Shown here: piece after piece, positions 24,140 to 61,858 of the stretch
How positions within the stretch are numbered: the stretch's first letter is position 1
How the letters are laid out: every line of letters starts with the position of its first letter
NCBI GenBank assembly: GCA_965249525.1
Contig: OZ252237.1
Location: forward strand, 836,443 to 900,442
Direction of reading: 5' to 3'
DNA: 64,000 nt
Source of the DNA: a bacterium
GTDB taxonomy: Bacteria > SAR324 > JACQKK01
The notes under the pieces: model-generated
The model's input: the letters and a program-made list of their open reading frames with translations, nothing else
The model's database searches: none
What the model was told of the DNA's origin: nothing
Position numbers and translations under genes: made by a program

Positions 24140-24172
24140 AAGGGATGAATCTTGCTTGATTGCATTTCCGAG

Positions 24173-24223
24173 TTGAAATTCCAAATTGAAATTTCAAATT
24201 GAAATTCCCAATTGCAATTCCAA
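24173..24223. promoter_or_regulatory. array of four tandem 12-13 bp palindromic sites (TTGAAATTCCAA, TTGAAATTTCAA, TTGAAATTCCCAA, TTGCAATTCCAA)
   Basis: Sites at 24173-24184, 24186-24197 (a perfect palindrome), 24199-24211 and 24212-24223. Read directly from the sequence, between the xthA stop and the FliM-like ORF. Confidence 0.5.
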
Positions 24224-46382: not shown

Positions 46383-48326
46383 TTATTGGTTGGCTTGCTG
46401 CTTATAGACTGCGCGGATGGCATCTATGGCTTCTTGATTGAGCAGTGAGGAGGTATCACCAAGGTCTTCTTCGGTGAGGGCAGCCCTCACAGCCCTGCGC
46501 ATGATTTTCATATTACGCGTTTTGGGAAGATCTTCTACCACCAGCACCAGATGCGGACGCATGGAACTGCCCAGAGTATTTTGAATGAAATTGGTCAATT
46601 CTTGCTTCAGCAAATCCGAATTGCCGGGAAGCGGAACACACACCATGCAGATCTTGGTTCCTTTGAGTTTATCTGGAATACCTACCACTGCCACTTCTTT
46701 GAGTTTGCCACTATTCATGGCAGCATTTTCAATTTCTGCGGGACCCATGCGTTTGCCCGCCACCTTCATGGTATCGTCTGAACGCCCGTGAAGAAACCAG
46801 TGCCCGTCTTCATCTCGGCTGGCATAGTCGCCATGCACCCATAAGCCTGGGATGCGCTCCCAATAGTTTTCCAGATAGCGTTCGGGATTATTCCACAGCC
46901 CGCGGGTTAGTCCCATGGGATGCCGCTTCAATACCAGTTCCCCACGCATGCCAACAGGAACAGGCTGCCCCGCTTCATCCACCACATCTGCCCCCATCCC
47001 AGGAATGGCGATGGAAAAAGACCCCACTTTTAGTGGATGGTGCAAATCACACAACAAAATAGAACCAGAGACTTCGGTGCCGCCAGCAGAATTCAAAATT
47101 GGCACACGGCGCTGCCCTACTACTTCAAATAGCCAGTTCCAAGCACGTTCTGTCCAGGGTTCTCCCCCGCTGATCACCATGCGCAGCCGAGAAAGATCGT
47201 GCTTTTTAACTTGATCTTCACCATAAGCCATCATTTGACGAATCAGTGCCGGTGCCAATTCTACAAAAGTCACCCCATGTTCTGCCATCAGCCGCCAATA
47301 GCGATCCGTGGTGGGATAATCTGGCAGTCCTTCAGCCAGCAGCAAAGAACCTCCATGCAGCGTTGGCAAGGTAGCCAGCTTAGAACCTACCATCCAGCCC
47401 ATGTCTGCCATGCAGAAATGGCGGTCACTCTCCCGAAAATCATTCAAAATGCCGTGATCTAAAGCCATCTTGACTACCAGCCCCACTTGGTCATACACAC
47501 AGCCCTTCGGTTTGCCTGTGGTGCCAGAAGTAAAATGCAGCACTGCAGGAGCTTCTGTTGGCATAGGTCGTGTGGGAAAATCCTCACGCCCGCTGGCTAA
47601 AAACTCTTCCCACCACACATCGCGACCTGTCTGCATGGGGCAAGAATCTCCCAAACGAGACACCACCACCTGTCGTATCTCCAACCCTTCCGCCGCTTGA
47701 TCTGCTGTCTTTTTCATCTCTATACGCTTCCCCCGACGCAATCCCCCATCCGCTGTGAACAATACCTTTGCTCCTGCCAATTCCAGCCGAGAACGCACCG
47801 CCTGCGGGCCAAATCCGGAAAACAACGGCATCACCACCGCCCCCAGGCGCACCACTCCAAAATATGCAATCAGTGCCTCTGGAATCAGCGGCAGGTACAA
47901 GCCACATACATCTCCCGCATCTATTCCCCATCTTTCCAATGCAGATGACACCCGACAACTTAGGCGGTCAAACTGCTGATAACTCAACCGCTGTAATTCA
48001 CCATCCTCACCCTCCCAAACCAGAAACTCTTTCTGATACACCTCTGTCCCCCGATGCCGATCCAGGCAGTTTAATGCCAAATTTGTTTCTCCTCCCACAC
48101 ACCACTTTACCCAAGGCAGCCCTTGGGAGTTATCCATCATCTGCTGATAGGGTTTAAAAAAACGAATGTCTGCAAACTGCAGTACTGCTTCCCAAAACCA
48201 TGCAGGCTGCCGATAGGCCCTTTCTGACAGCGACTCAAAATCTCGCTCACCCACTTCACGCAAAAATGCTGTCAGGTTGCTATTGGCAATCACTTCCCTA
48301 GAAGGCGTCCAGCGATATTTTTCCAT
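46383..48326 (-). CDS. acetyl/acetoacetyl-CoA-synthetase-like acyl-CoA ligase (ANL superfamily)
   Basis: 647 aa, with an ACS-like N-terminal region, HFTSGTTGKPKG, and a C-terminal ...GKRMGPAEIE...LPKTRNMKIMRR. Confidence 0.85.
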   Translation of the reverse strand: MEKYRWTPSREVIANSNLTAFLREVGERDFESLSERAYRQPAWFWEAVLQFADIRFFKPYQQMMDNSQGLPWVKWCVGGETNLALNCLDRHRGTEVYQKEFLVWEGEDGELQRLSYQQFDRLSCRVSSALERWGIDAGDVCGLYLPLIPEALIAYFGVVRLGAVVMPLFSGFGPQAVRSRLELAGAKVLFTADGGLRRGKRIEMKKTADQAAEGLEIRQVVVSRLGDSCPMQTGRDVWWEEFLASGREDFPTRPMPTEAPAVLHFTSGTTGKPKGCVYDQVGLVVKMALDHGILNDFRESDRHFCMADMGWMVGSKLATLPTLHGGSLLLAEGLPDYPTTDRYWRLMAEHGVTFVELAPALIRQMMAYGEDQVKKHDLSRLRMVISGGEPWTERAWNWLFEVVGQRRVPILNSAGGTEVSGSILLCDLHHPLKVGSFSIAIPGMGADVVDEAGQPVPVGMRGELVLKRHPMGLTRGLWNNPERYLENYWERIPGLWVHGDYASRDEDGHWFLHGRSDDTMKVAGKRMGPAEIENAAMNSGKLKEVAVVGIPDKLKGTKICMVCVPLPGNSDLLKQELTNFIQNTLGSSMRPHLVLVVEDLPKTRNMKIMRRAVRAALTEEDLGDTSSLLNQEAIDAIRAVYKQQANQ

Positions 48327-48425
48327 CGTTTTTTCTTAATAAAGCAGAGAGTTAAATTCATGCCGACAGCAATATCCGCCACCATTTAGCGTATGCTGGG
48401 ACAACTTAGGGCAAAGCGCAAGAAA

Positions 48426-48442
48426 GAATCCCTCCACCCCCA
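48426..48442 (+). other. fragment identical to the 3' end of tRNA-Pro (T-loop/acceptor 3' half)
   Basis: gaatccctccacccc at 48426-48440 is identical to 52904-52918 inside the tRNA-Pro gene. It marks the left end of duplicate copy A. Confidence 0.85.
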
Positions 48443-48588
48443 TTCATGGTAAAAACTTGGTTATTGTCGTAGGTTTTTATGGTAAACTACTATCACTATT
48501 ATCAATACTATCAATTTTATGCCAGATGGACAATGACACTATGCCAGTTTTCATATGACACAAAAAATGTTTTCAAGGAGATACAAAA

Positions 48589-50802
48589 ATGTTTTTAAGT
48601 AATAACTTTTTCAAGTTCAGGAGGTTGTTTGTGTTCGCTTTGCTGGGCATGCTAGGAACCATGTTAGCCAGCTGTGATGAAGCTTCTCAAGAAGATCAGG
48701 GAAACGTTTATTATGAGCGAGACCCAATACCTACCGCAGAAGACTTATTTTGTTCTAGTCCAAGTGAAGAGGATAAAGTAGCAGTTGAGCATTCCTTCAG
48801 TCCTGTTGACATAAGTACTGGCCACTTGTTTTTAAGTGCAGTACAACTTGCGGAAAAAGCAAAATTAACGGGTCTTGAGTCTGCTTCAATAGATTTAAGG
48901 GACAGCTCAAACGAGCTTTTTGAGTTAAGGAATAACAATGCTCTGCATATCAAAGATCAACAATCGTTTTTGACTAACATCCAAGAGAACCGTAGAGAAG
49001 CACTGCTTGTCTTGAAGGATTCTCAGGGTGAATACTGCCTGCTGCTGTCTTTGCAGCCTGAAAGCAGCTCCTCATCACCTGATGGGGATAGTTCCACCTC
49101 TGATGGCAGCCCCTCATCACCTGATGGGGATAGTTCCACCTCTGATGGCAGCCCCTCATCACCTGATGGGGATAGTTCCACCTCTGATGGCAGCCCCTCA
49201 TCACCTGATGGAGACAGCCAGGTTACCCTGTTGGCTGAACAGCCTGAGTTTCAATTGCCCTATGTTTGGTGGAATCGGGATAGTGGTAAGGCTCGCACCG
49301 TTTTTGCTGGCAATATTCCCCACATCAATTACATTGGAAAAGTGCTCACTCTGACAACAGATACCCCACTGAATTTTGAGCTTGTTTCTGTAAGCCCAGC
49401 GGCATGGGCAAACTTTTTCGGGATAAATGAAGAGACAGGAGCGCTTTATATTTCGGATCAATTTGCAGATTTAAGTAATGTATTTAATGTGGAAAAAGAC
49501 AAGTCATCCTATGGCTTATCACAATTGGATGCAGAGTATCAGAAAGAAGGCTTGCCTTTGCCTGAACAATTTGTGCTAACCGTCAATGTTAGCTTGCAAG
49601 ATGACAGCAACAGCGAGGAAACAACGCACATTACAGTGAAGATGCCTAAATTTGGCAATCCTGACTGCAGTATATTAGATTGGGATGCAGACCTAGAAGG
49701 TTGGACAGAGGAACAGGTGAGCACCTTTCAAAGGGGAATTTGCAAGCATCTAGATTATAAGGTCAGGCCCAGGGGGAAGGAGTTTATTACAGACCAGGCT
49801 ATTTTGAATACCCTGCCTGGCGGGCTTACACAGCCCAAGGCAAATTATCAGGTGATTTTTAGGGATGAATTTAATGAAGAAGGGGGAATTGAAAAATTAG
49901 ATCACCGTCTGTGGACCGCACGATATAGTCTAGCCTGCAACCAATTCAGGCAAGAGGGAGGGGTTATCCACTTGAGAGTAGCTGATGACTGCAGATCAGC
50001 TGATGCGAAAGGCAATCTCCATCGCCGTTATCCTTCAATAACCACAGCAGGTAAATTTGAATATAAATATGGCTATATAGAAGCCAGGTTTAATCGTGTT
50101 CCCATTACTGGTAGGGGAGTTAGTTTTTTTAGCAGCTGGGGGTCGCGTCCAGCTCTCTTTTCGAAGAGCTACCGTGATTTTATGTGTCGTGGCAATAATC
50201 CTCAAGCAAAGAGGATGCGCTGGCTAACCTCCAGGGGGGTGGAGATGCAGCATTTAGAATTTAGTAAGGGACCATCCGCCTGGTGGCTTCATCATCTGAT
50301 CGATCCTAAGAGAGCCCGCAATAAATGTCATACTTATTCAGATGGCAGGGGCAAAGGCATCCATTCTGGTCTTTGGTGGGCAACGCACAGTTTTGTAGTC
50401 TCGCAGGAGATTGTCATAGGTGTGGAGTGGACTCCCGCAGGATACAAGGGCTTTATCAATGGAGAACCTTACAAGGGTTGGGCTAGTATTGATCCTAATA
50501 TTAGAAAATTCTATGAATATGGATATTCTACTCCAACAAACACAGGAATTCTTGGGTATAAATTTACAGACATACCAAACTATAATGATGAAGACCCAGA
50601 CAATCCACCATGCAGCCAGTTAGGAGACTGTATCATTGACCGTACAGTAAGCCATGCCTATCAGGACATAGGCATCACCATGTCAGCGAACCCAGCCATA
50701 GGAGTTTCCTCTCAAAATTGGGAAGATTTTGCTGAAATAGACTATATTAGGGTATTTCAACCAGAAGATCAATACAGCGATGTGGAAAAAACATACAAGT
50801 GA
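48589..50802 (+). CDS. lipoprotein with Ser/Asp repeat linker and C-terminal GH16/ConA-like glucanase-lectin domain, paralog 1
   Basis: Lipobox LGTMLAS|CDE. (SSPDGDSSTSDGSP)n linker. Cadherin/Ig-like strings (FFGINEETGALYISD...LDAEY...FVLTVNV). GH16-like motifs VIFRDEFNEEG..W, YPSITTAGKFEYKYGYIEARFNRVP and C-terminal EIDYIRVFQ. AAGGAG lies 8 nt upstream of the ATG. Confidence 0.75.
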   Translation: MFLSNNFFKFRRLFVFALLGMLGTMLASCDEASQEDQGNVYYERDPIPTAEDLFCSSPSEEDKVAVEHSFSPVDISTGHLFLSAVQLAEKAKLTGLESASIDLRDSSNELFELRNNNALHIKDQQSFLTNIQENRREALLVLKDSQGEYCLLLSLQPESSSSSPDGDSSTSDGSPSSPDGDSSTSDGSPSSPDGDSSTSDGSPSSPDGDSQVTLLAEQPEFQLPYVWWNRDSGKARTVFAGNIPHINYIGKVLTLTTDTPLNFELVSVSPAAWANFFGINEETGALYISDQFADLSNVFNVEKDKSSYGLSQLDAEYQKEGLPLPEQFVLTVNVSLQDDSNSEETTHITVKMPKFGNPDCSILDWDADLEGWTEEQVSTFQRGICKHLDYKVRPRGKEFITDQAILNTLPGGLTQPKANYQVIFRDEFNEEGGIEKLDHRLWTARYSLACNQFRQEGGVIHLRVADDCRSADAKGNLHRRYPSITTAGKFEYKYGYIEARFNRVPITGRGVSFFSSWGSRPALFSKSYRDFMCRGNNPQAKRMRWLTSRGVEMQHLEFSKGPSAWWLHHLIDPKRARNKCHTYSDGRGKGIHSGLWWATHSFVVSQEIVIGVEWTPAGYKGFINGEPYKGWASIDPNIRKFYEYGYSTPTNTGILGYKFTDIPNYNDEDPDNPPCSQLGDCIIDRTVSHAYQDIGITMSANPAIGVSSQNWEDFAEIDYIRVFQPEDQYSDVEKTYK
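49072..49218 (+). repeat. 42-nt in-frame tandem repeat, 3 full units plus a partial one (SSPDGDSSTSDGSP)
   Basis: Units at 49072-49113, 49114-49155 and 49156-49197, with a partial unit to 49218. Read directly from the sequence. Confidence 0.9.
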
Positions 50803-50840
50803 TGGGGGTTCAGCTAGATGTTGTCATGCTGGGCTGGTCA

Positions 50841-51740
50841 TCAACCATGCTGGTACATTTCCAAGGCTTGTTTTACGGCGGCAACAGTTTCCAGTTCATG
50901 GGTGCGAATAATCTGCGTGCCGCCCATCAAGGCAAAGACTGCGAAAAAAGGTTCGGCTTGGCGACGATGGTTGTTGCCAAAGGCTTCGGGCGCATGGGGG
51001 AGGATATTCATCAGCGGCCAACCGAGGATGTGCAGCCGCCAAGTGTTGAGCAAGGTGTGCAGTTGGTGATGAACGCGCTGGGGCGAATCTTTAAGGTTGT
51101 CATAGTAGAAGCCTAAGCCGGGATCTAAGATGTGCTGTTGTACGCCGAGCTGTTGTGCCAATTGCAGGCGCTGCTGAAACCATTGTTGCATGGAGGCAAT
51201 CATGTCTGGCAAGAATTCAAAATTGCCCACTTGACGGACATGTTCTCCTTGTACATAGCAGTGAATGACAGCGGTTTGATGTTTGGCAGCCAAGCGATAG
51301 GCTTCCTTTTCTTCGACTGCGCCTGTGAGGTTAAAAATAGCGGCGCCTGCTTGGGCTGCTGCTTCCAGCACTTGAGGATAATAACTTTCTACCGATACCA
51401 ACAGGCCTTCTGCAGCTAAGGCTTTTATTACAGGCTGCAGACGTTCTATTTGTTCAGCAGGCGCAACACGCTTTGCCTGTCCAAGGGTGGATTCTGCCCC
51501 AATGTCTATCAGACGTGCCCCTTGCTGAGCCAGTTCACGACCACGGGCGATGGCAGCAGATGCCTCGGTACAGATACTTTCCTTGTAGGCAGAGTCTGGG
51601 GAAAGGTTGATCACTCCCATCAACAGGGGGCGTAGGAAAGTCAGCTGCTGTCCTCGTAGCTGGAAAGGATGAAAGGAGGGGCTGCTAGCTACTGGCTGAC
51701 GGTGCTGCATCAGTTTAGCAATGGCGACGAGATTCAGCAT
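50841..51740 (-). CDS. folP: dihydropteroate synthase
   Basis: LMGVINLSPDS...DIGAEST...AAIFN...HILDPGLGF... The start is uncertain (ATG 51740 or 51710; the track ORF extends to 51833). Confidence 0.85.
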   Translation of the reverse strand: MLNLVAIAKLMQHRQPVASSPSFHPFQLRGQQLTFLRPLLMGVINLSPDSAYKESICTEASAAIARGRELAQQGARLIDIGAESTLGQAKRVAPAEQIERLQPVIKALAAEGLLVSVESYYPQVLEAAAQAGAAIFNLTGAVEEKEAYRLAAKHQTAVIHCYVQGEHVRQVGNFEFLPDMIASMQQWFQQRLQLAQQLGVQQHILDPGLGFYYDNLKDSPQRVHHQLHTLLNTWRLHILGWPLMNILPHAPEAFGNNHRRQAEPFFAVFALMGGTQIIRTHELETVAAVKQALEMYQHG

Positions 51741-52020
51741 AGACTGTCTATTGGCTGGAAAATCCTGGGTTCTGCTGCTGTGCGACTGCCATCCGCTCAT
51801 TTGGTTTAGCAGTGTTTTGCACGCGCATTGCATAGATGGTCAAGCGTTCATGCCTGCAACATACCATGCTGTCGGATACATGCAGGTTGGTCTATCGGTC
51901 ACTAAAACCATTTCATTAGTAATGCAAGGACGCATTATCCAAGAAAGAAGCGCAAGGATGCAACACCAAGACGTACCAGTTAAGCAAAACCGCTTGGTAG
52001 GTACCAATTCAAGGTGAAGC

Positions 52021-52797
52021 ATGAAATCCACATTACCCTTTATTGCACCTATTAAACAACAGAACCCTTCTCCTTGCTGCAGGCATTACATGTGTCTGTT
52101 GATGTTGATAGTCTTAATTGTTTTGATGCTTTCAGCCTGTGCCCACCCTTTCCGCATGCCAGTGGGTGCTAAAGGTATGCAAAACAAACGATTCTCTCAT
52201 CAGGGAAGCATTAAAGACAACAACCCTTCTTTGTGGAATTCACGACACCCCCAAGTACGCAAATTCCGCCGCTATTACAACCGTACCATTACTGTGGAAA
52301 AATCCCTGAAACGCGCGCAACCCTATCTGCCTGCCATCGTAAAAGAATTCCGTCGCCGTGGGTTGCCGGAAGAATTGGCTTATCTTCCCATGCTTGAATC
52401 CACCTTCCTCAATAACGCTGACTCTGGAAACGCACTCGGCATGTGGCAGTTCACACGCCAAACCGCACAACACATGGGATTATATGTGGGCACCCTAGGA
52501 GATGATCGCCTCAACTGGAAAAAATCCACCATAGCTGCCGTTCGTTACCTGGAACAACTGGGAGAGCGCTTTAACTACCGCTGGGACCTCGCCCTTGCTG
52601 CTTACAACGGAGGCCCTAACTATCTAGAAAAAAACATCAAAAAATATCACTCCCACGATGTCTTCAACCTCAAACTCCGAAAAGAAACCTCCGAATACGT
52701 CCCCAAATTCATCGCCATGCTACAAGTCGCCAAACAGAAATACCCCCATCTTTACACCATAAGAAAAAAGAATCCCCTGCGACTCGTCGCACGTTGA
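52021..52797 (+). CDS. lytic murein transglycosylase (SLT domain) lipoprotein
   Basis: Lipobox-like VLMLSAC. SLT catalytic region LPMLESTF...GMWQFTRQTA...AAYNGGPNYL. Confidence 0.75.
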   Translation: MKSTLPFIAPIKQQNPSPCCRHYMCLLMLIVLIVLMLSACAHPFRMPVGAKGMQNKRFSHQGSIKDNNPSLWNSRHPQVRKFRRYYNRTITVEKSLKRAQPYLPAIVKEFRRRGLPEELAYLPMLESTFLNNADSGNALGMWQFTRQTAQHMGLYVGTLGDDRLNWKKSTIAAVRYLEQLGERFNYRWDLALAAYNGGPNYLEKNIKKYHSHDVFNLKLRKETSEYVPKFIAMLQVAKQKYPHLYTIRKKNPLRLVAR

Positions 52798-52846
52798 CCA
52801 CCACAAGCATGCTATATAATGCATGGAGACTGCTGTGTTATCATAA

Positions 52847-52920
52847 CGGGGTGTAGCGCAGTCTGGCAGCGCACCTGCTTTGGGAGCAGGGGGCCGGGGG
52901 TTCGAATCCCTCCACCCCGA
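52847..52920 (+). tRNA. tRNA-Pro (anticodon UGG)
   Basis: Manual cloverleaf: acceptor CGGGGTG/CACCCCG, D-stem GCGC/GCGC, anticodon stem CCTGC/GCAGG with loop TTTGGGA, T-arm GGGGG-TTCGAAT-CCCTC, discriminator A. CCA is not encoded. 74 nt. Confidence 0.9.
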
Positions 52921-53057
52921 TTTATGGTAAAAACTTGGTTATTGTCGTAGGTTTTTATGGTAAACTATTATCAATACTATCAATTTTATGCCAGATGGAC
53001 AATGACACTATGCCAGTTTTCATATGACACAAAAAATGTTTTCAAAGATATACAGAA

Positions 53058-55220
53058 GTGTTTTTAAGTAATAGCCTTTTCAAGTTCAGGAGGTTGTTTG
53101 TGTTCGCTTTGCTGGGCATGCTAGGAACCATGTTAGCCAGCTGTGATGAAGCTTCTCAAGAAGATCAGGGAAACGTTTATTATGAGCGAGACCCAATACC
53201 TACCGCACAAGGCTTATTTTGTTCTAGTCCAAGTGAAGAGGATAAAGTAGCAGTTGGGCATTCCTTCAGTCTTGTTGACATAAGTACTGGCCGCTTGTTT
53301 TTAAGTGCAAAACAACTTGCGGAAAAAGCAAAATTAACGGGTCTTGAGTCTGCTTCAATAGATTTAAGGGACAGCTCAAACGAGCTTTTTGAGTTAAGGA
53401 ATAACAATGTTCTGCATATCAAAGATAAACAATCGTTTTTGACTAACATCCAAGAGAACCGTAGAGAAGCACTGCTTGTCTTGAAGGATTCTCAGGATGA
53501 ATACTGCCTGCTGCTGTCTTTGCAGCCTGAAAGCAGCTCCTCATCACCTGATGGGGATAGTTCCACCTCTGATGGCAGCCCCTCATCACCTGATGGGGAT
53601 AGTTCCACCTCTGATGGCAGCCCCTCATCACCTGATGGAGACAGCCAGGTTACCCTGTTGGCTGAACAGCCTGAGTTTCAATTGCCCTATGTTTGGTGGA
53701 ATCAGGATAGTGGTAAGGCTCGCACCGTTTTTGCTGGCAATATTCCCCACATCAATTACATTGGAAAAGTGCTCACTCTGACAATAGATACCCCACTGAA
53801 TTTTGAGCTTGTTTCTGTAAGCCCAGCGGCATGGGCAAACTTTTTCGGGATAAATGAAGAGACAGGAGCGCTTTATATTTCGGATCAATTTGCAGATTTA
53901 AGTAATGTATTTAATGTGGAAAAAGACAAGTCATCCTATGGCTTATCACAATTGGATGCAGAGTATCAGAAAGAAGGCTTGCCTTTGCCTGAACAATTTG
54001 TGCTAACCGTCAATGTTAGCTTGCAAGATGACAGCAACAGCGAGGAAACAACGCACATTACAGTGAAGATGCCTAAATTTGGCAATCCTGACTGCAGTAT
54101 ATTAGATTGGGATGCAGACCTAGAAGGTTGGACAGAGGAACAGGTGAGCACCTTTCAAAGGGGAATTTGCAAGCATCTAGATTATAAGGTCAGGCCCAGG
54201 GGGAAGGAGTTTATTACAGACCAGGCTATTTTGAATACCCTGCCTGGCGGGCTTACACAGCCCAAGGCAAATTATCAGGTGATTTTTAGGGATGAATTTA
54301 ATGAAGAAGGGGGAATTGAAAAATTAGATCACCGTCTGTGGACCGCACGATATAGTCTAGCCTGCAACCAATTCAGGCAAGAGGGAGGGGTTATCCACTT
54401 GAGAGTAGCTGATGACTGCAGATCAGCTGATGCGAAAGGCAATAACTATCGCCGTTATCCTTCAATAACCACAGCAGGTAAATTTGAATATAAATATGGC
54501 TATATAGAAGCCAGGTTTAATCGTGTTCCCATTACTGGTAGGGGAGTTAGTTTTTTTAGCAGCTGGGGGTCGCGTCCAGCTCTCTTTTCGAAGAGCTACC
54601 GTGATTTTATGTGTCGTGGCAATAATCCTCAAGCAAAGAGGATGCGCTGGCTAACCTCCAGGGGGGTGGAGATGGAGTATTTAGAAATTAGTAAGGGACG
54701 ATTCGCCTGGTGGGTTTATCATCTGATCGATCCTAAGAGAGCCCACTCTAACTGTCATACTTATTCAGATGGCAGGGGCAAAGGCATCCATTCTGGTCTT
54801 TGGTGGGCTACTCACGATTTTAGACTATTATCGCGGCAGATTGTCATAGGTGTGGAGTGGACTCCCGCAGGATACAAAGGCTTTATCAATGGAGAACCTT
54901 ACAGGGGTTATAGCAAAGGCATCGGAGAATTTCGGGAATATGGATATTCTACCGAAACTAACACAAGAATTGGTGGGTTTGAATTTACAAGGATACCAGG
55001 AGCACCCTCGCATGTGCGCTCAACATCATGCAACCCATCAGGAGTCTGTATCATTGACCGTACAGTAAGCCATGCCTATCAGAACATAGGCATCACCATG
55101 TCAGCGAACCCAAACATAGGAGTTTCCTCTCAAAATTGGCAAGATTTTGCTGAAATAGACTATATTAGGGTATTTCAACCAGAAGATCAATACAGGGGTG
55201 TGGAAAAAACATACAAGTGA
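53058..55220 (+). CDS. lipoprotein with Ser/Asp repeat linker and GH16/ConA-like domain, paralog 2
   Basis: Same architecture as 48589-50802, but with a GTG start, and the AAGGAG of copy 1 is AAAGAT here. 720 aa. Confidence 0.7.
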   Translation: MFLSNSLFKFRRLFVFALLGMLGTMLASCDEASQEDQGNVYYERDPIPTAQGLFCSSPSEEDKVAVGHSFSLVDISTGRLFLSAKQLAEKAKLTGLESASIDLRDSSNELFELRNNNVLHIKDKQSFLTNIQENRREALLVLKDSQDEYCLLLSLQPESSSSSPDGDSSTSDGSPSSPDGDSSTSDGSPSSPDGDSQVTLLAEQPEFQLPYVWWNQDSGKARTVFAGNIPHINYIGKVLTLTIDTPLNFELVSVSPAAWANFFGINEETGALYISDQFADLSNVFNVEKDKSSYGLSQLDAEYQKEGLPLPEQFVLTVNVSLQDDSNSEETTHITVKMPKFGNPDCSILDWDADLEGWTEEQVSTFQRGICKHLDYKVRPRGKEFITDQAILNTLPGGLTQPKANYQVIFRDEFNEEGGIEKLDHRLWTARYSLACNQFRQEGGVIHLRVADDCRSADAKGNNYRRYPSITTAGKFEYKYGYIEARFNRVPITGRGVSFFSSWGSRPALFSKSYRDFMCRGNNPQAKRMRWLTSRGVEMEYLEISKGRFAWWVYHLIDPKRAHSNCHTYSDGRGKGIHSGLWWATHDFRLLSRQIVIGVEWTPAGYKGFINGEPYRGYSKGIGEFREYGYSTETNTRIGGFEFTRIPGAPSHVRSTSCNPSGVCIIDRTVSHAYQNIGITMSANPNIGVSSQNWQDFAEIDYIRVFQPEDQYRGVEKTYK
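53541..53645 (+). repeat. 42-nt in-frame tandem repeat, 2 full units plus a partial one
   Basis: Units at 53541-53582 and 53583-53624, with a partial unit to 53645. One unit fewer than in copy 1. Confidence 0.9.
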
Positions 55221-55283
55221 TGGGGGTTCAGCTGGATTTTATCATGCAGAAATGCTGCAAATAAAAACCATCTGTTGCCTGTG

Positions 55284-55329
55284 GTCTTGTTGCCAGGTCT
55301 TGTTGCCAGGTCTTGTTGCCAGGTCTTGG
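55284..55329. repeat. 13-nt tandem repeat (gtcttgttgccag) x3 plus a partial copy
   Basis: 55284-55296, 55297-55309 and 55310-55322 are identical, followed by gtcttgg. Intergenic, between paralog 2 and the AI-2E transporter gene (convergent). Confidence 0.85.
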
Positions 55330-55425
55330 CAGCCTTTTGTGGGTAGTATAGATGTTCACAACAAGCTGCGGCTGGGCGACTGTCCTTGTTTCTAAAGGCG
55401 GGGGCGCAGGCTTGCTCCAGGTATT

Positions 55426-56520
55426 TTATTCCTTAACGGGGTGGCGAAATTCAAACCAGGTAAGGGCAAGAGCTTTAAACAGCGCTAACAGAGGAATAGC
55501 AAATACAGCACCCCAGAAGCCCCAAAGTCGTCCAAAGACAATGACGCCTATGAGAATGGCAGTGGGGGTGATTTTCACAGCTTCAGAGAACATTAGTGGT
55601 ACCAGCACGTTGCCGTCAAGGAATTGGATAATCAGGTAGGCGATGAGGAGAGAAGTCAGCTGCCATGAAAATCCCCACTGGGCGAGTCCCAGCAGAAAAA
55701 TGGGAAGGGTGAGGACAAAAGCACCGACATAGGGAACAAGAACAGAGAGACCAGTAAATACGCCCATAAGGACGGCGTATTCAAACTGGAGAATGGCAAA
55801 TATCACCCAGGTGACAATACCCACGATGAGGATTTCCCCAACTTTGCTGCGAACATACTTGGCCATGCGCTCTTCCATTTCGCCCCAGATACGTTTGACC
55901 AGCTGGAGATCGCCAGGCAGCAAACGGCCAGCACTTTTTGAGAGGGCACTTTTGTCTTGAAGCAGAAAGAACACCAGCAAAGGAGTAAGTATCAGGTAGA
56001 TGATGGCGCCTGTAATGCCCGAAATTGCACTAAAAGCTGTTTGGATAAAATCCTGGGTATGTTCGGCGAGGTTTTTTTGTAAAATATCGGAGATATTTTT
56101 GTTGTCTGCAAACATCTCTGAGATACCTGGAAAGTACATCTGCAAAAAAACAGGTGGCTGCCAGTTTTCCACATGGACAGCCAGTTCATCAACGATTTCT
56201 GGGATACGAACGGTAAGCTGGAGAATTTGTTCAACTGCCAGTTGAACAGGACCAATCAAAGCAACGCAATAGATGATGAGAAAGATGAAAAATACGATGT
56301 TTCGTGCAAGTACGGTTGGAAAGCCGCGTTTGGTAAGTGCCGAAATATAGCTTTCTAATGCAAAAGTGAACATCAGAGAAATAATCAGCAATAGCAGCAC
56401 TGTCCCCAGCAGCACAACACCTGCAATAACGACGGCCGCCGCCGCCAACAACGTCAGGATGCGAGGATCTGTGAATTGTTGCAAAAACCCACGTAAACGA
56501 TTTTTTAACAAAGAACCCAT
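55426..56520 (-). CDS. AI-2E family transporter (PerM/YhhT-like permease)
   Basis: 364 aa polytopic membrane protein. ...VPYVGAFVLTLPIFLLGL...FLDGNVLVPLMFSEAVKITP... is typical of the family. Confidence 0.75.
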   Translation of the reverse strand: MGSLLKNRLRGFLQQFTDPRILTLLAAAAVVIAGVVLLGTVLLLLIISLMFTFALESYISALTKRGFPTVLARNIVFFIFLIIYCVALIGPVQLAVEQILQLTVRIPEIVDELAVHVENWQPPVFLQMYFPGISEMFADNKNISDILQKNLAEHTQDFIQTAFSAISGITGAIIYLILTPLLVFFLLQDKSALSKSAGRLLPGDLQLVKRIWGEMEERMAKYVRSKVGEILIVGIVTWVIFAILQFEYAVLMGVFTGLSVLVPYVGAFVLTLPIFLLGLAQWGFSWQLTSLLIAYLIIQFLDGNVLVPLMFSEAVKITPTAILIGVIVFGRLWGFWGAVFAIPLLALFKALALTWFEFRHPVKE

Positions 56521-56656: not shown

Positions 56657-57481
56657 TCAGCTTTTGTTGACTTGCTGCCCTCCTGTTACTGTACCCAAAG
56701 ACCCTAGTACCAGTTCTATCAATTCCTGCTCCCCCCATTGCTTACGGTTCACCAACCGACACAACAATGCACTGTTTGGAACCTCTTGTAACAAATGTAA
56801 TACTCCCAAGCGAGCAAACTCCAACAATACAATAAATGTGCTCACCATCTCTAGACGACCAGTCCCTTCCGCAAACAACCCCCTAAAATAAACTTGACGC
56901 TTCTGAATCAAGATACCACACGTCCGTCGTATCACCTCTTCCATGCGAAAAGGCTCCGGTGTAATCTGCAAGCTCTCTTGCCCCTCCACACGCTCTAAAA
57001 CTTCGCGAAATGCCTCTAATAACCCATACAGAGACACCTCCTCAATTTCCCGCTCTTCAATTTCTGTATTCCCCTCCATAGTTATTTCTGGCGATCTTCG
57101 TGGAAACACCTCGCGCCCCAGCATCTCTCTCTTGCCCAACTGCTTGGCTGCCTCTTTAAGCTCCTGATAAAACTGCAACCGCTTTGCCAATATGGCTTCC
57201 ACCTCCGCTGCGTCCATATCTTCTTCTTCACTGTCACGCGAAATCCCAGGTAGCAATGAGCGAGATTTTATCCAAATTAATGTGGCTGCTATGGTTAAAA
57301 ATTCCCCTCCCTCATCCAATTGATGCGCTTGTATCTTCCCCACCCATTCCAAATAAGGCTCAGTTAGCTCACTTAGACACAAACTACCAATGTCCAGTTC
57401 TCGCTTACGCACCAAATGCAGCAACAAATCCAGCGGTCCCTCAAATTCTGCCAATTCTACTTGCAACGGACTATAAGTCAT
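56657..57481 (-). CDS. scpA: segregation and condensation protein A
   Basis: FEGPLDLLLHLVRKRELDI..., the ScpA N-terminal signature. 274 aa. Confidence 0.85.
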   Translation of the reverse strand: MTYSPLQVELAEFEGPLDLLLHLVRKRELDIGSLCLSELTEPYLEWVGKIQAHQLDEGGEFLTIAATLIWIKSRSLLPGISRDSEEEDMDAAEVEAILAKRLQFYQELKEAAKQLGKREMLGREVFPRRSPEITMEGNTEIEEREIEEVSLYGLLEAFREVLERVEGQESLQITPEPFRMEEVIRRTCGILIQKRQVYFRGLFAEGTGRLEMVSTFIVLLEFARLGVLHLLQEVPNSALLCRLVNRKQWGEQELIELVLGSLGTVTGGQQVNKS

Positions 57482-58234: not shown

Positions 58235-58660
58235 GCAATAGCTTCTAAGCTAGCTTTATTGGGTCTGATGCCTTACAGCAGGTTTGAGCGCACTATATGG
58301 GAATATCTTGAATGAGAGTTTAGTATAAAGGTTCTTTCTTGCAAAATCAATTGCTTGGTGAGCAAAGCTTAGCTATTGCCATCGAATTTGCTGTGTTGGC
58401 AGTTGTTGAGCAGCGGTAAAAATATCCTCAGCCTTGACGGCACCCAGGCCTGCTGGAGGCAAATCGGCATCCAACAAAGAAGTTATCTGGGGAACAGAAA
58501 TCTCCATACACTAACCACTTCTGCAACACCCTGCAGCACACAGCATACCAACCCTTCCACCACCATCGCGCTGAGCTTGTCTCTTCATACCAAATATGAC
58601 ACACTGCACCGATGCTTTTCATGCTCGCATGCCATACATCCTCACTCCATATCTGCCAAA

Positions 58661-59255
58661 ATGATGCCGTTCATACCGCTGATACGCTTATCGCTGGCCA
58701 GTGCTGTTATCATGACCATGCCCGCCTTGATGACATCAACAGTTCTTGCCCAGGGGAAATGCCACAAACTCTGCGATGAAAGCGCCGCCAAAACCTATTC
58801 CCCTAAACAAATTAGGCAATTCCTCAAGCAAGGCGAAACTGTGGACTCTCTCGGTAAAAATCAATCCACCCCCCTGCACTGGATTGCCAGTGACAATCCC
58901 AACCCCAAAGCCACAGCAAGCCTCCTGAAAGCAGGTGCTAATCCCAACATCAAAGATGCCTATGGATCCACACCACTGGTCTGGGCAGCAGGCTACAATC
59001 TCAATCCCCAAGTACTCCAGCTGCTGCTCAAAGCCGGCGCTGATATCAACACCGCCGCCGACAACGGCTCCGGCCCGCTTCATGCAGCAGCACTTATGAA
59101 CCAAAATCCCACAATTCCTGCTTGATTATGGTGCCAATCCCAAAGCTAAAAATAAAGATGATCTCACCCCCCTGGACTTGCTGAAAGAAAATCCGCTGCT
59201 TAAAGACACTCCCATCAAAAAAATCCTCCAAGATGCCCTGAAAAAAATGCTATGA
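58661..59255 (+). pseudogene. secreted ankyrin-repeat protein gene interrupted by a +1 frameshift
   Basis: Signal peptide MMPFIPLIRLSLASAVIMTMPALMTSTVLAQG, then ANK repeats (TPLHWIA...LLKAGANPN, TPLVWAA...LLKAGADIN, GPLHAAA...). The frame stops at 59123-59125, but the +1 frame continues FLLDYGANPKAKNKDDLTPLDLL...KKML* to 59255. The shift is most simply placed at the A4 run at 59103-59106. Confidence 0.7.
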
Positions 59256-59358: not shown

Positions 59359-61698
59359 TCAAATGCCGTTAGGGTCATTTGTGCTGAGAATGATATTGTG
59401 AAATCTACCCGGGTCAATAGAACTAAATTGCTGGGGTTGAACATGCCAGGTGTTCCAAGTGAGTTCGGCTGTGTATGGTATGTTTTCAATTGCGGCAATC
59501 CCCGAATAATCAAACGAGAGGTCGGTGAACCAGCCAGAATCTCGAACCAACTTCAGTTGGTTTTTTAAGCCTGAACAAGCAGGGGTATCCCCTTTATGTT
59601 GGGCTGGCAGCGACTTGGCGCATTCTATCGCTTTACCCGTAGGCACATAATAGGACACCCTGTAATTATTCTTTTTCAGCCGAGATATACATGCTCCTAT
59701 CTTTTCATTATCCAATGCGGTATTAGAGGGGAATTCTATAAACAGACTGGCCTTTTTTCTTTTAGAGGCAACCAGATAATCTGCCAGTGCATGACAGGCA
59801 TTTACATCATTTAGATTTTTACCGTCAATCCATACCTCTTTTTTGCGCTTTTCGGCAATTTGCAAAATATCCTCAAGTTTAAGGCCGGTATTCGTTGCAG
59901 GAGGATGGTATATGTCCATCTTGCCGTCAGAGGATATCACCAGGTCGATTTCTAGGCAGTCAGCCACCAAGCTTCCTCGCAGTGCAGCTGCAATGCTATT
60001 TGAGCGATGGTAGCAAATATTTGTTCCCTTCATTCCGTTAGCTTGACTGACAGCAAATATTTGGGTGGGGCTGTCAGATGAGTCTATCTCTCCTGCGGTC
60101 TGAGATTGAAATGAATTCAGATGAACATACGAAAGACTATCTGAAAGCCTCCTCTTAACGATACGTATGGGTATATTTTTTTGCCTGCCAAGATGTGTTG
60201 TTGTTCCAATGCCTTCAACACTTATACCATTATTAAGAAGATGCAGAATAGTAGGGGAAAGTTGTTCAAGCGTGTGAATAACATTGGACTTAGATGCCAA
60301 ACGATAGTGTTCCCATAAATCTGCATAACTTTTTTGAGCGGATTCATTAAAATACATAACAAATGGAACACGGACCATTTCATGTAAAAACCTGCTGGAA
60401 TCATGGTATCTATCGGTAAATACCGCGTCTCCATGATCTGAAAAATAGATGAATACGAATGGTTCTTTTATTGATTTGATAAGTTCAAAAACTTGGGAAA
60501 TACTGAAATCAATGTAACGAATCGCATTATCGTATGATTCAATTTCTTTAATTTCTCTTTTAAGGCTGCCAAAAATAGATTCTTTATTTCTTCCTTGATA
60601 ATAGGAATCTATATTGGAATGAAATTCTTCAGGAATATGATGATGGTATCCAATATGCCCCGCATATGAATGCAAGAAAATTACCTCTGGACGATCATAT
60701 TTCATTTCCACTAACTTTTTAGGAAGATAGTGTTTGAAGTGCTCATGGTCAAATGGTCTAGCATAATATCCACCAAAGTTACCCAAACCTTTTGGTGTAG
60801 AGAAAATTCTATCATTTTTATTAAAAATTAAAGAAGAAACAGTATTCCAGCTGCCGCTTTGTCCCTGGTTGGAAATAAGAAAAGTATCAACACCGTTGAA
60901 TTCTAAAATATCGATTAAAGATAGTCTTTTTTGTTCAAAGATTGGCAGATATATTTCTTTTGGATCAGTGCCAAAGCTCAAGGCAGTTAGTAGGGATGGC
61001 GAGGTATGGGTATGAGTTGAGAAAACATTATCAAAAAAGAGTGCTCCACTATCCGCATCAGACTTTAATGACGATAAAAAAGGAGTGGTATCCCGAGGAT
61101 ATCCATATATGCCCATATTCATTATAGATGTAGACTCACCAATATATATGAATATCTTTAATCTGGAATTTCGTAAATCCAATTGAGGAGAACTTTGGGC
61201 AAAGTTGATTTTCATTTCTTTGTTAATCTTCTTCACTTTCATATAGCTTTGGAAAACCCGATTGGATTCATAACCAATAATTAATGCTATAACGGCAAAA
61301 CATACTCCTACTACGGTATTAGAGACATATTTATCTTTTAGTTGAATTTTTTTCTGACTTAATAAAATGATTTTACGCCATATGAAAAAACAGATAATAA
61401 TGAAAATAACAGCTAACAGAGTATCTTCTCGTTTCGCTAATAATCCCAATTCTGGAAGCAATGATAGTAAGAAAAAATAAGCTTCATCGACAGCAAAATC
61501 AAAGCTTTCAATAAAAGAATCCGTTCCAAGCCCTCGGGCATAGAAGAAAAATGGATCCACAATCCATATCCATATTAGCATTGCTAAAATACTTACACTG
61601 GTTTGAATCCATTTACTTTTAATAAAGTAATGAGCCGCCAGTCCACTAGTTGCAATCAAATAGATGAATGTAACTTTCTCAGTAATTAAAATATCCAT
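59359..61698 (-). CDS. phosphoethanolamine-transferase-type sulfatase fused to a C-terminal PLC/GDPD-like phosphodiesterase domain
   Basis: About 5 N-terminal TM helices. EptA/OpgE-like motifs IYIGESTS...GYPRDTTPFL, THTHTSPSL, LHSYAGHIGY, YDNAIRYIDF and IYFSDHGD. The C-terminal ~250 aa contain ICYHRSNS...ADCLEIDLVISSDGKMDIYHPP (HR...E.D...H pattern). About 33% GC. The ORF extends to a TTG at 61725; the first ATG is at 61698. Confidence 0.7.
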   Translation of the reverse strand: MDILITEKVTFIYLIATSGLAAHYFIKSKWIQTSVSILAMLIWIWIVDPFFFYARGLGTDSFIESFDFAVDEAYFFLLSLLPELGLLAKREDTLLAVIFIIICFFIWRKIILLSQKKIQLKDKYVSNTVVGVCFAVIALIIGYESNRVFQSYMKVKKINKEMKINFAQSSPQLDLRNSRLKIFIYIGESTSIMNMGIYGYPRDTTPFLSSLKSDADSGALFFDNVFSTHTHTSPSLLTALSFGTDPKEIYLPIFEQKRLSLIDILEFNGVDTFLISNQGQSGSWNTVSSLIFNKNDRIFSTPKGLGNFGGYYARPFDHEHFKHYLPKKLVEMKYDRPEVIFLHSYAGHIGYHHHIPEEFHSNIDSYYQGRNKESIFGSLKREIKEIESYDNAIRYIDFSISQVFELIKSIKEPFVFIYFSDHGDAVFTDRYHDSSRFLHEMVRVPFVMYFNESAQKSYADLWEHYRLASKSNVIHTLEQLSPTILHLLNNGISVEGIGTTTHLGRQKNIPIRIVKRRLSDSLSYVHLNSFQSQTAGEIDSSDSPTQIFAVSQANGMKGTNICYHRSNSIAAALRGSLVADCLEIDLVISSDGKMDIYHPPATNTGLKLEDILQIAEKRKKEVWIDGKNLNDVNACHALADYLVASKRKKASLFIEFPSNTALDNEKIGACISRLKKNNYRVSYYVPTGKAIECAKSLPAQHKGDTPACSGLKNQLKLVRDSGWFTDLSFDYSGIAAIENIPYTAELTWNTWHVQPQQFSSIDPGRFHNIILSTNDPNGI

Positions 61699-61858
61699 TA
61701 TTTTATCAATGCCGCTTCTTATCAAATTAATTATGAATTAGGAATCCAAATATAAATACCATCTAAATAATACCAATATAGAATAATATTTAAATTTGGT
61801 TATCTTGACGCATCATCAGAATTTTTTAACAAAATGGTTAATTACAGGGGATTGCTTG

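Follow-up and report, generated by a model that had tools for sequence, protein, structure and literature searches.

A bacterial direct repeat that begins inside tRNA-Pro: probable tandem duplication, differential loss and gene conversion of a GH16-like lipoprotein gene

Layout of the duplicated locus

The window (the whole 64-kb stretch of DNA that was analysed) contains two direct repeats of about 2.4 kb, located on the two sides of folP, a lytic transglycosylase gene (SLT) and an intact tRNA-Pro gene. Each repeat begins with the 3' end of a tRNA-Pro and carries a gene for a predicted lipoprotein. In window coordinates the features are as follows:

48426..48442, + strand: stub of 17 nt, putative 3' remnant of a lost second copy of tRNA-Pro
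48443..48588, + strand: leader of copy A, AT-rich (30% G+C), with a 9-nt insertion relative to B
48516..48548 (B: 52985-53017), + strand: 33-nt piece of the leader, 30/33 match to a Gfo/Idh/MocA gene
48589..50802, + strand: lipoA, 737 codons from ATG 48589; alternative start GTG 48631 behind AGGAGG
49058..49217 (lipoB: 53527-53644), + strand: tandem repeats of 42 nt (14 aa, rich in Ser/Pro/Asp/Gly) in lipoA
49359..50016 (B: 53786-54443), + strand: longest tract identical between A and B, 658 nt, sign of recent gene conversion
50419..50664 (B: about 54849-55082), + strand: hypervariable patch, residues 611-692, in predicted loops of the GH16-like domain
50803..50829, + strand: 3' flank of copy A, 27 nt, common to copy B; its end is the putative duplication junction
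50841..51833, - strand: folP (dihydropteroate synthase), from domain scans; database gene call of 299 aa
52021..52797, + strand: lytic transglycosylase with an SLT domain, from domain scans
52847..52920, + strand: intact tRNA-Pro(UGG), the last 17 nt of which are the start of repeat B
52921..53057, + strand: leader of copy B, with one match to a sigma-70-like consensus at 52942-52971
53058..55220, + strand: lipoB, 720 codons from GTG 53058; 706 from GTG 53100 (database call)
55221..55247, + strand: 3' flank of copy B, 27 nt; the repeat ends at 55247

Re-alignment of the window revealed that the duplication described in the first-pass annotation is real and that all its coordinates hold: copy A spans 48426-50829 and copy B 52904-55247, and they differ by 107 substitutions and 66 indel columns in an alignment of 2407 columns. 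Copy B starts 17 nt inside the 3' end of the intact tRNA-Pro(UGG), which is the sole tRNA and the sole Rfam match in the window. The homology begins at GAATCCCTCCACCCC (52904-52918 in B, 48426-48440 in A), passes through the end of the tRNA with one mismatch (48441 C vs 52919 G) and continues into the leader. This 15-mer has only two sites in the 64 kb, even when 2 mismatches are allowed, with 0.08 matches expected by chance. The stub comprises the 3' half of the T-arm, the 3' strand of the acceptor and the discriminator, and, as had been noted, no tRNA body accompanies it: a 22-nt T-arm/acceptor probe matches the intact tRNA only. Common to the two copies are a leader of about 140-150 nt, a lipobox-bearing ORF of 720-737 codons, and 27 nt past the stop codon. 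Copy A ends at 50829, separated by 11 nt from the folP stop codon at 50841-50843 (minus strand), while to the right of 55247 the sequence is unique and leads toward an AI-2E transporter gene. The G+C content of the cassette, estimated earlier by eye as about 42%, was measured as 43.5-43.7%, compared with 48.6% for the window and 50% for folP-SLT; its GC3 is 41%, compared with 49-52% in the neighbouring genes.

The leader of copy A opens with a weak hairpin and a T-run, inherited from the 3' flank of the tRNA. In a scan of the leader with the sigma-70-like consensus, the total number of matches was no higher than in shuffled sequence. Searches for a known or structured RNA in the leader yielded only the tRNA in Rfam, a fold z-score of -0.22 and no covariation. 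The 33-nt piece, a scrap present in every copy of the cassette, matches the Gfo/Idh/MocA gene at 62178-62210 on its sense strand.

The lipoprotein genes and their GH16-like domain

The protein encoded by lipoB is 91% identical to that of lipoA. In both copies the N-terminus reads MFLSNNFFKFRRLFVFALLGMLGTM-LASC-DE, with the lipobox L-A-S-C at residues 26-29 of lipoA; the aligned position is FAGC in the homolog P0003 and AAGC in P0004. The consensus [LVI][ASTVI][GAS]C was matched by reading the sequence and not with a dedicated signal predictor, and by this lipobox the gene product is a predicted lipoprotein, presumably exposed on the surface. Downstream of the lipobox lies the Ser/Pro/Asp/Gly-rich repeat region, in which lipoA has one 42-nt unit more than lipoB, followed by a middle region weakly similar to cadherin domains and by a C-terminal domain at about residues 400-737.

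No model of Pfam or NCBIfam matches the lipoprotein, in the case of Pfam even at an E-value of 10. An AlphaFold2 model of residues 400-737, based on an alignment of 27 sequences, reached pLDDT 76.8 and pTM 0.83 (an earlier prediction with a 4-sequence alignment had pLDDT 30 and was discarded). When this model was compared with the PDB by Foldseek, 50/50 matches listed were GH16 enzymes, the best with an E-value of 1.8e-11 and probability 1.0; TM-scores normalised by the target ranged among these 50 from 0.35 to 0.68 and were mostly 0.53-0.68. A profile search of PDB sequences identified laminarinases at E = 3e-6. GH16 groups together laminarinases, beta-glucanases, endo-beta-galactosidases and mucin O-glycanases. 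Like these enzymes, the lipoproteins possess both catalytic glutamates of the E-x-D-x-x-E motif (E552 in 24/27 aligned sequences and E557 in 27/27). The middle position of the motif is Asp in distant relatives; copy A has Gln there, like the close subfamily, and copy B has Glu. Unlike GH16 members, the domain also contains long variable inserts and is fused to a lipoprotein signal, a repeat linker and the weakly cadherin-like region. The predicted structure thus shows a divergent GH16 fold in the C-terminal domain, the hydrolase activity of which cannot be judged from the sequence.

The family is rare. A profile search of a set of 5.8 billion proteins with a 17-sequence alignment returned the same four proteins only; we suspect that low-complexity repeat words filled its candidate list. 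The protein search revealed no further paralog in the source genome. A scan of genome contigs added one distant, non-syntenic MAG of Verrucomicrobiales, and two scans of JGI metagenomes for more relatives added none. The distant members P0004, P0010 and P0011 occur in unrelated contexts, none of them beside tRNA-Pro.

The locus in related genomes

Our comparison rests on three genomes of the clade. In the close relative L001 (ENA ERZ25069801, contig_43), in which the flanks are 94.5-96% identical to the window, the order is folP (cut by the contig end), SLT, tRNA-Pro (1807-1880), leader, lipo1, the 27-nt flank, two scraps of folP, a 53-nt piece of tRNA, leader, lipo2, AI-2E transporter gene and ScpA. 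The first scrap is the 3' end of folP (4183-4330, corresponding to window 50830-50977), the second corresponds to an internal piece (4328-4381, window 51184-51237), and the tRNA-Pro 3' piece of 53 nt starts at the equivalent of window 52868. The remnants between lipo1 and lipo2 retain the correct order and orientation of the unit. One of the deletions in L001 occurred between 7-nt direct repeats TTGTTGC (window 50971-50977 and 51181-51187); short direct repeats at the ends of a deletion are typical of illegitimate deletion. The junction between the lipoprotein flank and the end of folP is found in both genomes (window 50803-50843, L001 4155-4200) and is 98% identical. The lipo1 gene carries frameshifts, some of which could be errors of the consensus, given the low coverage of the assembly and the repeated region.

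In the distant relative L005 (folP 71% identical) the order is folP-SLT-tRNA-Pro-AI-2E-ScpA, and no homolog of the lipoprotein was detected in its 20.7 kb. A short tandem-repeat spacer lies between its tRNA-Pro and AI-2E, and about 3 nt beyond the tRNA the sequence ceases to resemble the window. The candidate GCAAATAAA, common to this spacer and to the sequence right of copy B, was considered as a limit of the cassette and rejected, as its score of 18 is at chance level (shuffle mean 17.6). The gene order in L005 indicates that folP-SLT-tRNA is an old block and that the lipoprotein gene was originally located at B, as the first-pass annotation had supposed for the tRNA-proximal copy. We found no genome with two complete folP-SLT-tRNA-lipoprotein units in searches of proteins, genome contigs and JGI metagenomes.

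Gene conversion and accelerated evolution

Over about 1.1 kb in their centre, A and B are nearly identical. The 658-nt identical tract far exceeds the longest tracts obtained in 5000 permutations (mean 77 nt, maximum 185 nt). In a four-way alignment, 100-column windows over most of the gene exhibit 93-100% identity between A and B and 83-98% between lipo1 and lipo2, whereas positional orthologs from the two genomes are 74-95% identical in the same windows. The copies therefore evolve in concert, as the alignment shows paralogs to be closer than positional orthologs over most of the gene, and both the mosaic of identity and the long tract support the gene conversion proposed earlier. The 3' flanks follow the opposite pattern (A-lipo1 98% and B-lipo2 96% identical, A vs B 51%).

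In the core of the hypervariable patch the identity between A and B is about 61-64%. Outside residues 551-692 the differences between A and B comprise 24 nonsynonymous and 0 synonymous changes (binomial p = 0.003). Between genomes, the lipoprotein gene has dN/dS of about 1.0-1.1 with dN of 0.16-0.17, compared with dN/dS of 0.33-0.44 and dN of 0.014-0.05 in neighbouring genes; SLT is an exception among the neighbours, with dN/dS of 0.93 calculated from 17 differences only. These counts show an excess of nonsynonymous differences in the lipoprotein gene. A diversity-generating retroelement was considered and rejected: the differences between A and B are not adenine-specific, and the scanned ORFs encode no reverse transcriptase domain.

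Origin of the repeat

We propose that the repeats are probably leftovers of a tandem duplication of a 4.4-kb unit, composed of folP (minus strand), SLT (plus strand), tRNA-Pro, leader, lipoprotein gene and 27 nt, followed by deletions. The duplication would have created a junction at what is now 50829/50830, where the unit's end, 27 nt beyond the stop codon of the lipoprotein gene, met its start, 11 nt beyond that of folP. The spare folP-SLT-tRNA set would then have been removed by illegitimate deletions: in the source genome the upstream set may have been lost, leaving the last 17 nt of its tRNA beside the leader of copy A, while in the close relative the downstream set would have been eroded instead, to two folP scraps and 53 nt of tRNA. 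The set kept is the downstream one in the window and the upstream one in L001 (where the contig is cut inside folP and a third lipoprotein copy is possible). The stub would be the dispensable DNA nearest a leader that must be kept. Gene conversion has since homogenised the copies repeatedly, except for the hypervariable patch of the GH16-like domain.

The gene order in L001, together with the common junction, suggests that the whole folP-SLT-tRNA-lipoprotein unit was duplicated in tandem and that the spare was eroded. Since the flanks at the junction are alike across the genomes but dissimilar between A and B, the junction seems to have arisen once, before the genomes split, and the duplication was probably complete in their common ancestor. 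Erosion of a different set in the relative, with its folP scraps and longer tRNA piece, argues that the stub is a deletion scar and not a recombination site. In the window, the 17-nt tRNA end is the only remnant of the lost set that we detected, unlike in L001 with its pieces of both folP and tRNA: no significant trace of folP or SLT was detected in the 99 nt to the left of the stub, where local alignments were no better than with shuffled sequence (P = 0.19-0.9), and the deletion in the source genome is therefore postulated by analogy. A possible deletion at the microhomology GAATCCC (AAGAAA followed directly by GAATCCC at the junction, versus AAGAAAAAAGAATCCCC in the 3' end of SLT, 52761-52777) was set aside as too short for statistics.

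The first-pass annotation regarded the endpoint inside the tRNA as an att core, i.e. the 2.4-kb cassette as a mobile unit of a tRNA-targeting site-specific recombinase with the 15-17-nt tRNA piece as its core, which we now consider very improbable. This reading draws on the start of the homology inside the 3' half of the tRNA, on the G+C and GC3 of the cassette, which are below those of its neighbours, and on the absence of the cassette from the tRNA-Pro site of L005. The empty site and the atypical composition bear only on the first arrival of the gene at B, not on the duplication; as similarity to L005 stops so close to the tRNA, an integrative element, since decayed, could have taken part in that arrival. 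Against an att core stands the lack of an integrase, already noted earlier: scans of ORFs of at least 180 aa in window 21-64 kb with Pfam and NCBIfam revealed housekeeping and metabolic domains only, with no integrase or recombinase among them, and no recombinase appears in the precomputed Pfam tables for L001, L004 and L005. Moreover, the fragment lies upstream of the tRNA, 4.4 kb away and with folP and SLT in between, which is the wrong side for an att repeat; no tRNA-derived repeat occurs downstream of lipoB, nor any further tRNA-end repeat in the 64 kb at up to 2-3 mismatches. The fragment has different boundaries in the two genomes (it is 17 nt long in the window and 53 nt in L001, where folP scraps are fused to it), copy A terminates on its right in a junction with the 3' end of folP common to both genomes, and plasmid and phage collections contain no relatives of the cassette.

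A different history, which we judge unlikely but which accounts equally well for every junction in L001, places the order stub-lipoA-folP-SLT-tRNA-lipoB already in the common ancestor. Unequal crossover between B and A, for which 2.4-kb direct repeats are good substrates, would then have produced L001; with M for the folP-SLT-tRNA set, the product would be A-M-(B/A hybrid)-M-B, the second set of which was later eroded. Copy A would be older, originating either from an earlier tandem duplication and deletion or from a one-step template switch that placed a copy of the tRNA 3' end and the lipoprotein gene beyond folP. The assembly of the relative breaks inside acs (contig_2) and inside folP (contig_43), and the gap, equivalent to window 47451-51041, includes the place expected for copy A, as if a third repeat had confused the assembler; but the contig ends lie about 975 nt and about 210 nt off the repeat boundaries, and the protein search returned only 1 intact homolog from the sample of L001. 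This history also needs more events than one common duplication with differential loss, and a dispersed direct copy made in one step is a rarer mechanism than tandem duplication followed by deletion. Were a copy of type A, with its 17-nt stub, also present in the relative, the ancestral order would be that of the window, L001 would have arisen by unequal crossover, and the origin of copy A would move one step further back, without direct documentation. That the locus is an assembly artefact, with a single real copy placed twice, is hardly conceivable. The nearly identical centre of the copies could raise this idea, but the two differ at more than 100 sites, in the 9-nt leader indel, in the 42-nt repeat unit and in the hypervariable patch, their outer flanks are unique, and two copies, distinguished by the type of their 27-nt flank, are present in the independently assembled relative as well.

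Comparison with known systems

Tandem duplication-random loss (TDRL) is known best from the mitochondrial genomes of animals, in which pseudogenes and remnants of tRNAs betray the copies that were lost (PMC3326299). Its features recur in the tandem duplication proposed here: a block of genes with a tRNA would have been duplicated in tandem, one copy of each redundant gene decayed, truncated tRNA remnants are still recognisable by alignment, and one gene has apparently been transposed, as the lipoprotein gene is now also found beyond folP. Unlike in mitochondria, the block is located on a bacterial chromosome, both copies of the lipoprotein gene are retained, two close lineages apparently eroded different copies of the block, and the retained pair then undergoes gene conversion.

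Genomic islands inserted at tRNA genes are bounded by attL/attR direct repeats of 16-130 bp at the 3' end of the tRNA and encode a tyrosine integrase (PMC7545054). The locus resembles them in that a short tRNA 3' repeat adjoins a compositionally atypical gene missing from the same tRNA locus elsewhere. It differs in the lack of an integrase in the scanned region, in the side of the tRNA on which the repeat lies and in the length of the repeat, which is not conserved between genomes; besides, the repeat runs on into 2.4 kb of homology instead of merely bracketing an insert, and the segment between the repeats belongs to the core genome (folP, SLT).

The later evolution of the pair can be compared with that of Treponema pallidum tpr and Neisseria opa, paralogous outer-surface genes that are homogenised and diversified by interlocus gene conversion. 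Common to all are at least two copies per genome, mosaic identity, paralogs closer than orthologs, variable patches in predicted exposed loops and an excess of amino-acid changes. The present system differs in having two copies only, in providing no evidence of programmed or high-frequency switching and in belonging to an unrelated protein family.

Possible selection for the pair and significance

A crossover between A and B would delete folP, SLT and tRNA-Pro, and it is reasonable to suppose that the product is inviable. We also considered a more speculative extension, which we regard as quite improbable, namely that selection keeps the pair as a minimal, recombination-locked system of two cassettes that shuffles and diversifies its hypervariable loops, with a host or phage exerting positive selection on them. 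As the sole crossover product would be lethal, gene conversion without crossover alone would survive in such a system. In the relative the DNA between the copies contains nothing essential, and one of the two is in decay, a contrast that fits the lock.

The locus is probably the result of ordinary, well documented processes rather than the footprint of a mobile element, and it leaves the current understanding of the mechanisms unchanged. It does illustrate that finding part of a tRNA at a repeat boundary is in itself no evidence of an integrase: a similar stub is left by tandem duplication and subsequent deletion, because DNA adjoining a sequence that must be kept is deleted last. Tools for finding islands that are keyed on tRNA-derived direct repeats could therefore miscall such loci. 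The locus also provides a clear bacterial case of a duplicated block resolved apparently differently in two genomes that are about 95% identical. Finally, it draws attention to a rare, uncharacterised family of GH16-like lipoproteins, the evolution of which far outpaces that of neighbouring genes; this speed makes the family a candidate for interaction with a host or phage in a bacterium with a small genome.

Organisation of the tRNA-Pro locus

Two direct repeats on the + strand, copy A (48426-50829) and copy B (52904-55247), each contain a leader, a lipoprotein gene (lipoA or lipoB) and a 27-nt flank beyond the stop codon of the ORF, where the repeat ends. They start 4418-4478 nt apart, and their alignment of 2407 columns shows 107 substitutions and 66 columns with indels.

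Features of the locus (window coordinates, strand, description)
46383-48326, -, acetyl-CoA-synthetase-like gene
between the acetyl-CoA-synthetase-like gene and lipoA, 17-nt tRNA stub (3' piece of tRNA-Pro)
48589-50802, +, lipoA
50841-51833, -, folP
52021-52797, +, SLT lytic transglycosylase gene
between the SLT gene and lipoB, tRNA-Pro
53058-55220, +, lipoB
55426-56520, -, AI-2E-family transporter gene
56657-57481, -, ScpA gene

The homology opens at the 15-mer GAATCCCTCCACCCC, which in copy B lies inside the 3' end of tRNA-Pro(UGG) (52847-52920), the sole tRNA and the sole Rfam match in the 64-kb window. With up to two mismatches allowed, this 15-mer has only two sites in 64 kb (0.08 matches expected by chance). 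Past it, the homology covers the final two tRNA bases, with one mismatch, and then enters the leader. A tRNA body was looked for to the left of copy A and was not found. The right end of copy A lies 11 nt before the stop codon of folP, which is on the opposite strand. Our analysis thus reproduced the coordinates, the tRNA fragment shared by both copies with an intact tRNA only at B, and the folP-proximal end of A claimed in the first-pass annotation, as well as the low G+C content of the cassette (43.5-43.7% vs 48.6% for the window and 50% for the folP-SLT segment; GC3 41% vs 49-52%).

Several other features of the region were noted. A 33-nt piece present in all four leaders of the two genomes compared here (48516-48548 and 52985-53017 in the window; ~1922-1947 and 4471-4503 in L001, the locus of a close relative) matches 62178-62210 (- strand sense) at 30/33 positions, in the coding strand of a Gfo/Idh/MocA oxidoreductase gene (61859-62872, -) 9-13 kb away. 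It would encode LCQMDNDTM, vs LCQMDNGTM in the oxidoreductase; the two are in the same sense, which leaves no antisense pairing, and the piece could be filler DNA, or what is left of a paralogue lost to erosion. Just 3' of lipoB, a 13-nt tandem repeat, GGTCTTGTTGCCA (~3.5 copies, 55283-55328), overlaps a terminator-like hairpin (55315-55333). A sulfatase-domain gene (59359-61725, -) has a G+C content of 37% overall, falling to 30% in 600-nt windows, vs 48.6% in the window; it is ~96% identical in the relative despite this composition, and may be an older horizontal acquisition. The gene for an ankyrin-repeat protein (58376-59125, +) and the small size of the genome (longest contig 1,724,560 nt) hint that the bacterium lives in association with a host. 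The best named relatives of folP are MAGs from several phyla (52-58% identity). Farther away, the ORF 1396-2919 contains four overlapping 48-nt copies with a 24-nt period (2134-2253), which would encode an 8-residue repeat, and an AT-rich imperfect palindrome with overlapping 40-nt arms (24158-24225) separates an exo/endonuclease/phosphatase-family ORF from a FliM/FliN-like ORF.

Relatives of the locus

Only four proteins similar to this lipoprotein were found in a set of 5.8 billion: both window copies, P0003 (67% identity) and P0004 (34%). P0003 is encoded at L001 (ENA ERZ25069801, contig_43), where DNA identity to the window is 94.5-96% in the flanking genes. The left part of L001 comprises folP (cut by the contig end), SLT, an intact tRNA-Pro, the leader and a first lipoprotein gene, lipo1. 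After lipo1, a 27-nt flank of identical type is fused to the 148-nt 3' end of folP (window 50830-50977), followed by a 54-nt internal folP piece (window 51184-51237), the final 53 nt of tRNA-Pro (from window 52868), and then the leader, lipo2, AI-2E and ScpA. Lipo1 is probably a pseudogene, since it carries at least 10 private frameshifting indels while the neighbouring genes are intact. Lipo2 has lost its stop codon, and its ORF continues through the 27-nt flank and beyond.

In L005, the locus of a more distant relative (folP 71% identical), the order is folP-SLT-tRNA-Pro, a short tandem-repeat spacer, AI-2E and ScpA, with no lipoprotein homologue across 20.7 kb. The spacer (L005 8536-8765) consists of ~4-5 tandem copies of a ~45-nt unit (…CAATACCATCAACGCAATACCATCAAAATGCAAAACAAAAGGGACG…). 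This order identifies folP-SLT-tRNA-Pro-AI-2E as the older backbone and the position of copy B as the first site of the gene, in support of the earlier proposal that the tRNA-proximal copy was the source. Distant members of the family lie in unrelated genomic contexts, none adjoining tRNA-Pro, and searches of plasmids, phages and JGI metagenomes gave no relatives.

Origin of the duplication

The sequences following the lipoprotein stop codons sort by position (A-lipo1 98% identical, B-lipo2 96%, A-B 51%), and hence the junction between the cassette end and the folP end arose once, before the genomes separated. This junction belongs to the duplication of the whole folP-SLT-tRNA-leader-lipo unit. 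We propose, as the simplest history, that the lipoprotein gene would have arrived directly 3' of tRNA-Pro, its acquisition from outside being suggested by its composition and by the empty site in L005, that the 4.4-kb unit would then have been duplicated in tandem, and that illegitimate deletions would have removed the spare folP-SLT-tRNA set: the downstream one in L001, by at least two deletions, and the upstream one in the window. One of the L001 deletions lies between 7-nt direct repeats, TTGTTGC (window 50971-50977 and 51181-51187). The surviving tRNA piece would be the margin of the segment that could be lost. To remove the last few tRNA bases, a deletion would have to end in a tiny target or invade the leader, which carries a tRNA-terminator-like hairpin and one sigma-70-like consensus match 22 nt beyond the tRNA end (a candidate promoter only, as sigma-70-like matches overall were no more numerous than in shuffled sequence). 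Such an edge effect would leave a tRNA 3' piece in both genomes, of different lengths (17 and 53 nt), and in the window upstream of the intact tRNA. No significant folP or SLT scraps were found in the 99 nt to the left of the stub. The heptamer GAATCCC occurs at the 3' end of SLT (52770-52776, preceded by AAGAAAAAA) and 134 nt downstream in the tRNA T-arm (52904-52910), and the left junction of copy A reads AAGAAA followed directly by GAATCCC; this pattern is compatible with microhomology-mediated deletion, but the match is short.

A shared full duplication with reciprocal loss is, in our judgement, somewhat better than an even prospect. It would be a bacterial counterpart of the tandem duplication-random loss known in mitochondrial genomes, which is usually recognised by truncated remnants of tRNAs (PMC3326299). 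A rather unlikely alternative takes the window-like order as ancestral and derives L001 from it through an unequal crossover of B with A and later erosion. In the relative, the assembly stops within acs (contig_2, locus L004) and within folP (contig_43), and the counterpart of window 47451-51041 falls between these ends; an A-type copy there, if present, would make the window-like order ancestral, with the origin of copy A not directly documented. Site-specific recombination at the tRNA, with the stub as an att core, was the reading of the tRNA endpoint offered in the first-pass annotation, and we consider it very improbable. Sites of this kind have a constant boundary, are placed at the distal end of the insert and are normally accompanied by an integrase (PMC7545054); none of the three features is found here. 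The boundary of the tRNA piece varies (17 nt in the window vs 53 nt in L001), the piece lies upstream of the intact tRNA, and no integrase, transposase or reverse transcriptase was detected among the ORFs of at least 180 aa at 21-64 kb, whose domains are housekeeping and metabolic. The upstream position and the missing integrase had themselves been noted at first pass.

Concerted evolution and selection

Along most of its length, the gene is more similar between the two copies of one genome (A-B 93-100%, lipo1-lipo2 83-98%) than between positional orthologues (74-95% between genomes). The A-B identity is mosaic: the 5' third is 95-99% identical, 49112-50247 contains five differences and includes a 658-nt perfect tract (longest tract in 5000 permutations: mean 77 nt, maximum 185 nt), and identity drops to ~61-64% at the core of a patch spanning residues 611-692. 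Gene conversion has thus kept the copies evolving in concert, save for one region, and the earlier claim of such conversion is borne out by the long tract and by the excess of within-genome identity. The dS of the patch (0.32) exceeds that of neighbouring genes between genomes (0.03-0.11), which fits a duplication that took place before the two genomes diverged.

Outside residues 551-692, all 24 A-B differences are nonsynonymous, where ~5 synonymous ones would be expected (binomial p = 0.003). Between genomes, dN/dS is ~1.0-1.1 for the lipoprotein gene (dN 0.16-0.17) vs 0.33-0.44 for the AI-2E transporter, ScpA and sulfatase (dN 0.014-0.05); SLT gives 0.93, on 17 differences only. Open reading frames of 720-775 codons are kept in three of the four copies. 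These data point to diversifying selection on a functional protein rather than decay.

FolP and tRNA-Pro(UGG) are usually essential. If A crossed over with B, folP, SLT and this tRNA would be lost, and from the usual essentiality we infer that the products die; if so, the pair would be stable in this genome. In L001 nothing essential lies between the copies, and one of them is decaying. A more novel reading, in which these essential genes hold the two copies together as a minimal system for diversification, is possible but unlikely.

The lipoprotein family

The lipoprotein has a signal peptide with the lipobox LASC, 14-residue Ser/Pro/Asp/Gly repeats coded by 42-nt units whose number differs between A and B, and a middle region that weakly resembles cadherin domains (E = 5e-5). 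It matched no Pfam or NCBIfam model. An exhaustive HMMER search collected 76 representative relatives, and a profile built on 17 of them matched GH16 laminarinases in PDB (E = 3e-6). The C-terminal domain (residues ~400-737) is predicted to adopt the GH16 fold: a 27-sequence model (pLDDT 76.8, pTM 0.83) retrieved GH16 enzymes from PDB with Foldseek in 50 of the 50 matches listed, with E-values from 1.8e-11. The hypervariable patch falls in a less confident part of the model (pLDDT ~60-70), mainly loops and two short strands. Both glutamates of the catalytic motif E-x-D-x-x-E are present, E552 in 24 and E557 in all of the 27 sequences. The Asp is Gln in A and Glu in B, whereas the canonical form, E-[IV]-D-x-[FY]-E, is seen in distant relatives. 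Judging from sequence, the domain may be a glycan-cleaving enzyme or just a glycan-binding module.

Copy A (48573-48591) has a good Shine-Dalgarno site and ATG (AAGGAG-N8-ATG) for the long form of the signal peptide; copy B (53042-53060) has a degraded site and GTG in place of the ATG. Both contain an internal AGGAGG-N6-GTG (48631, 53100). The two genes may thus be expressed differently or begin translation at different sites.

The locus is a new, well-resolved case of known processes, namely segmental tandem duplication, deletional erosion down to a tRNA scar, and gene conversion alongside diversifying selection, acting on a family of uncharacterised GH16-like lipoproteins.
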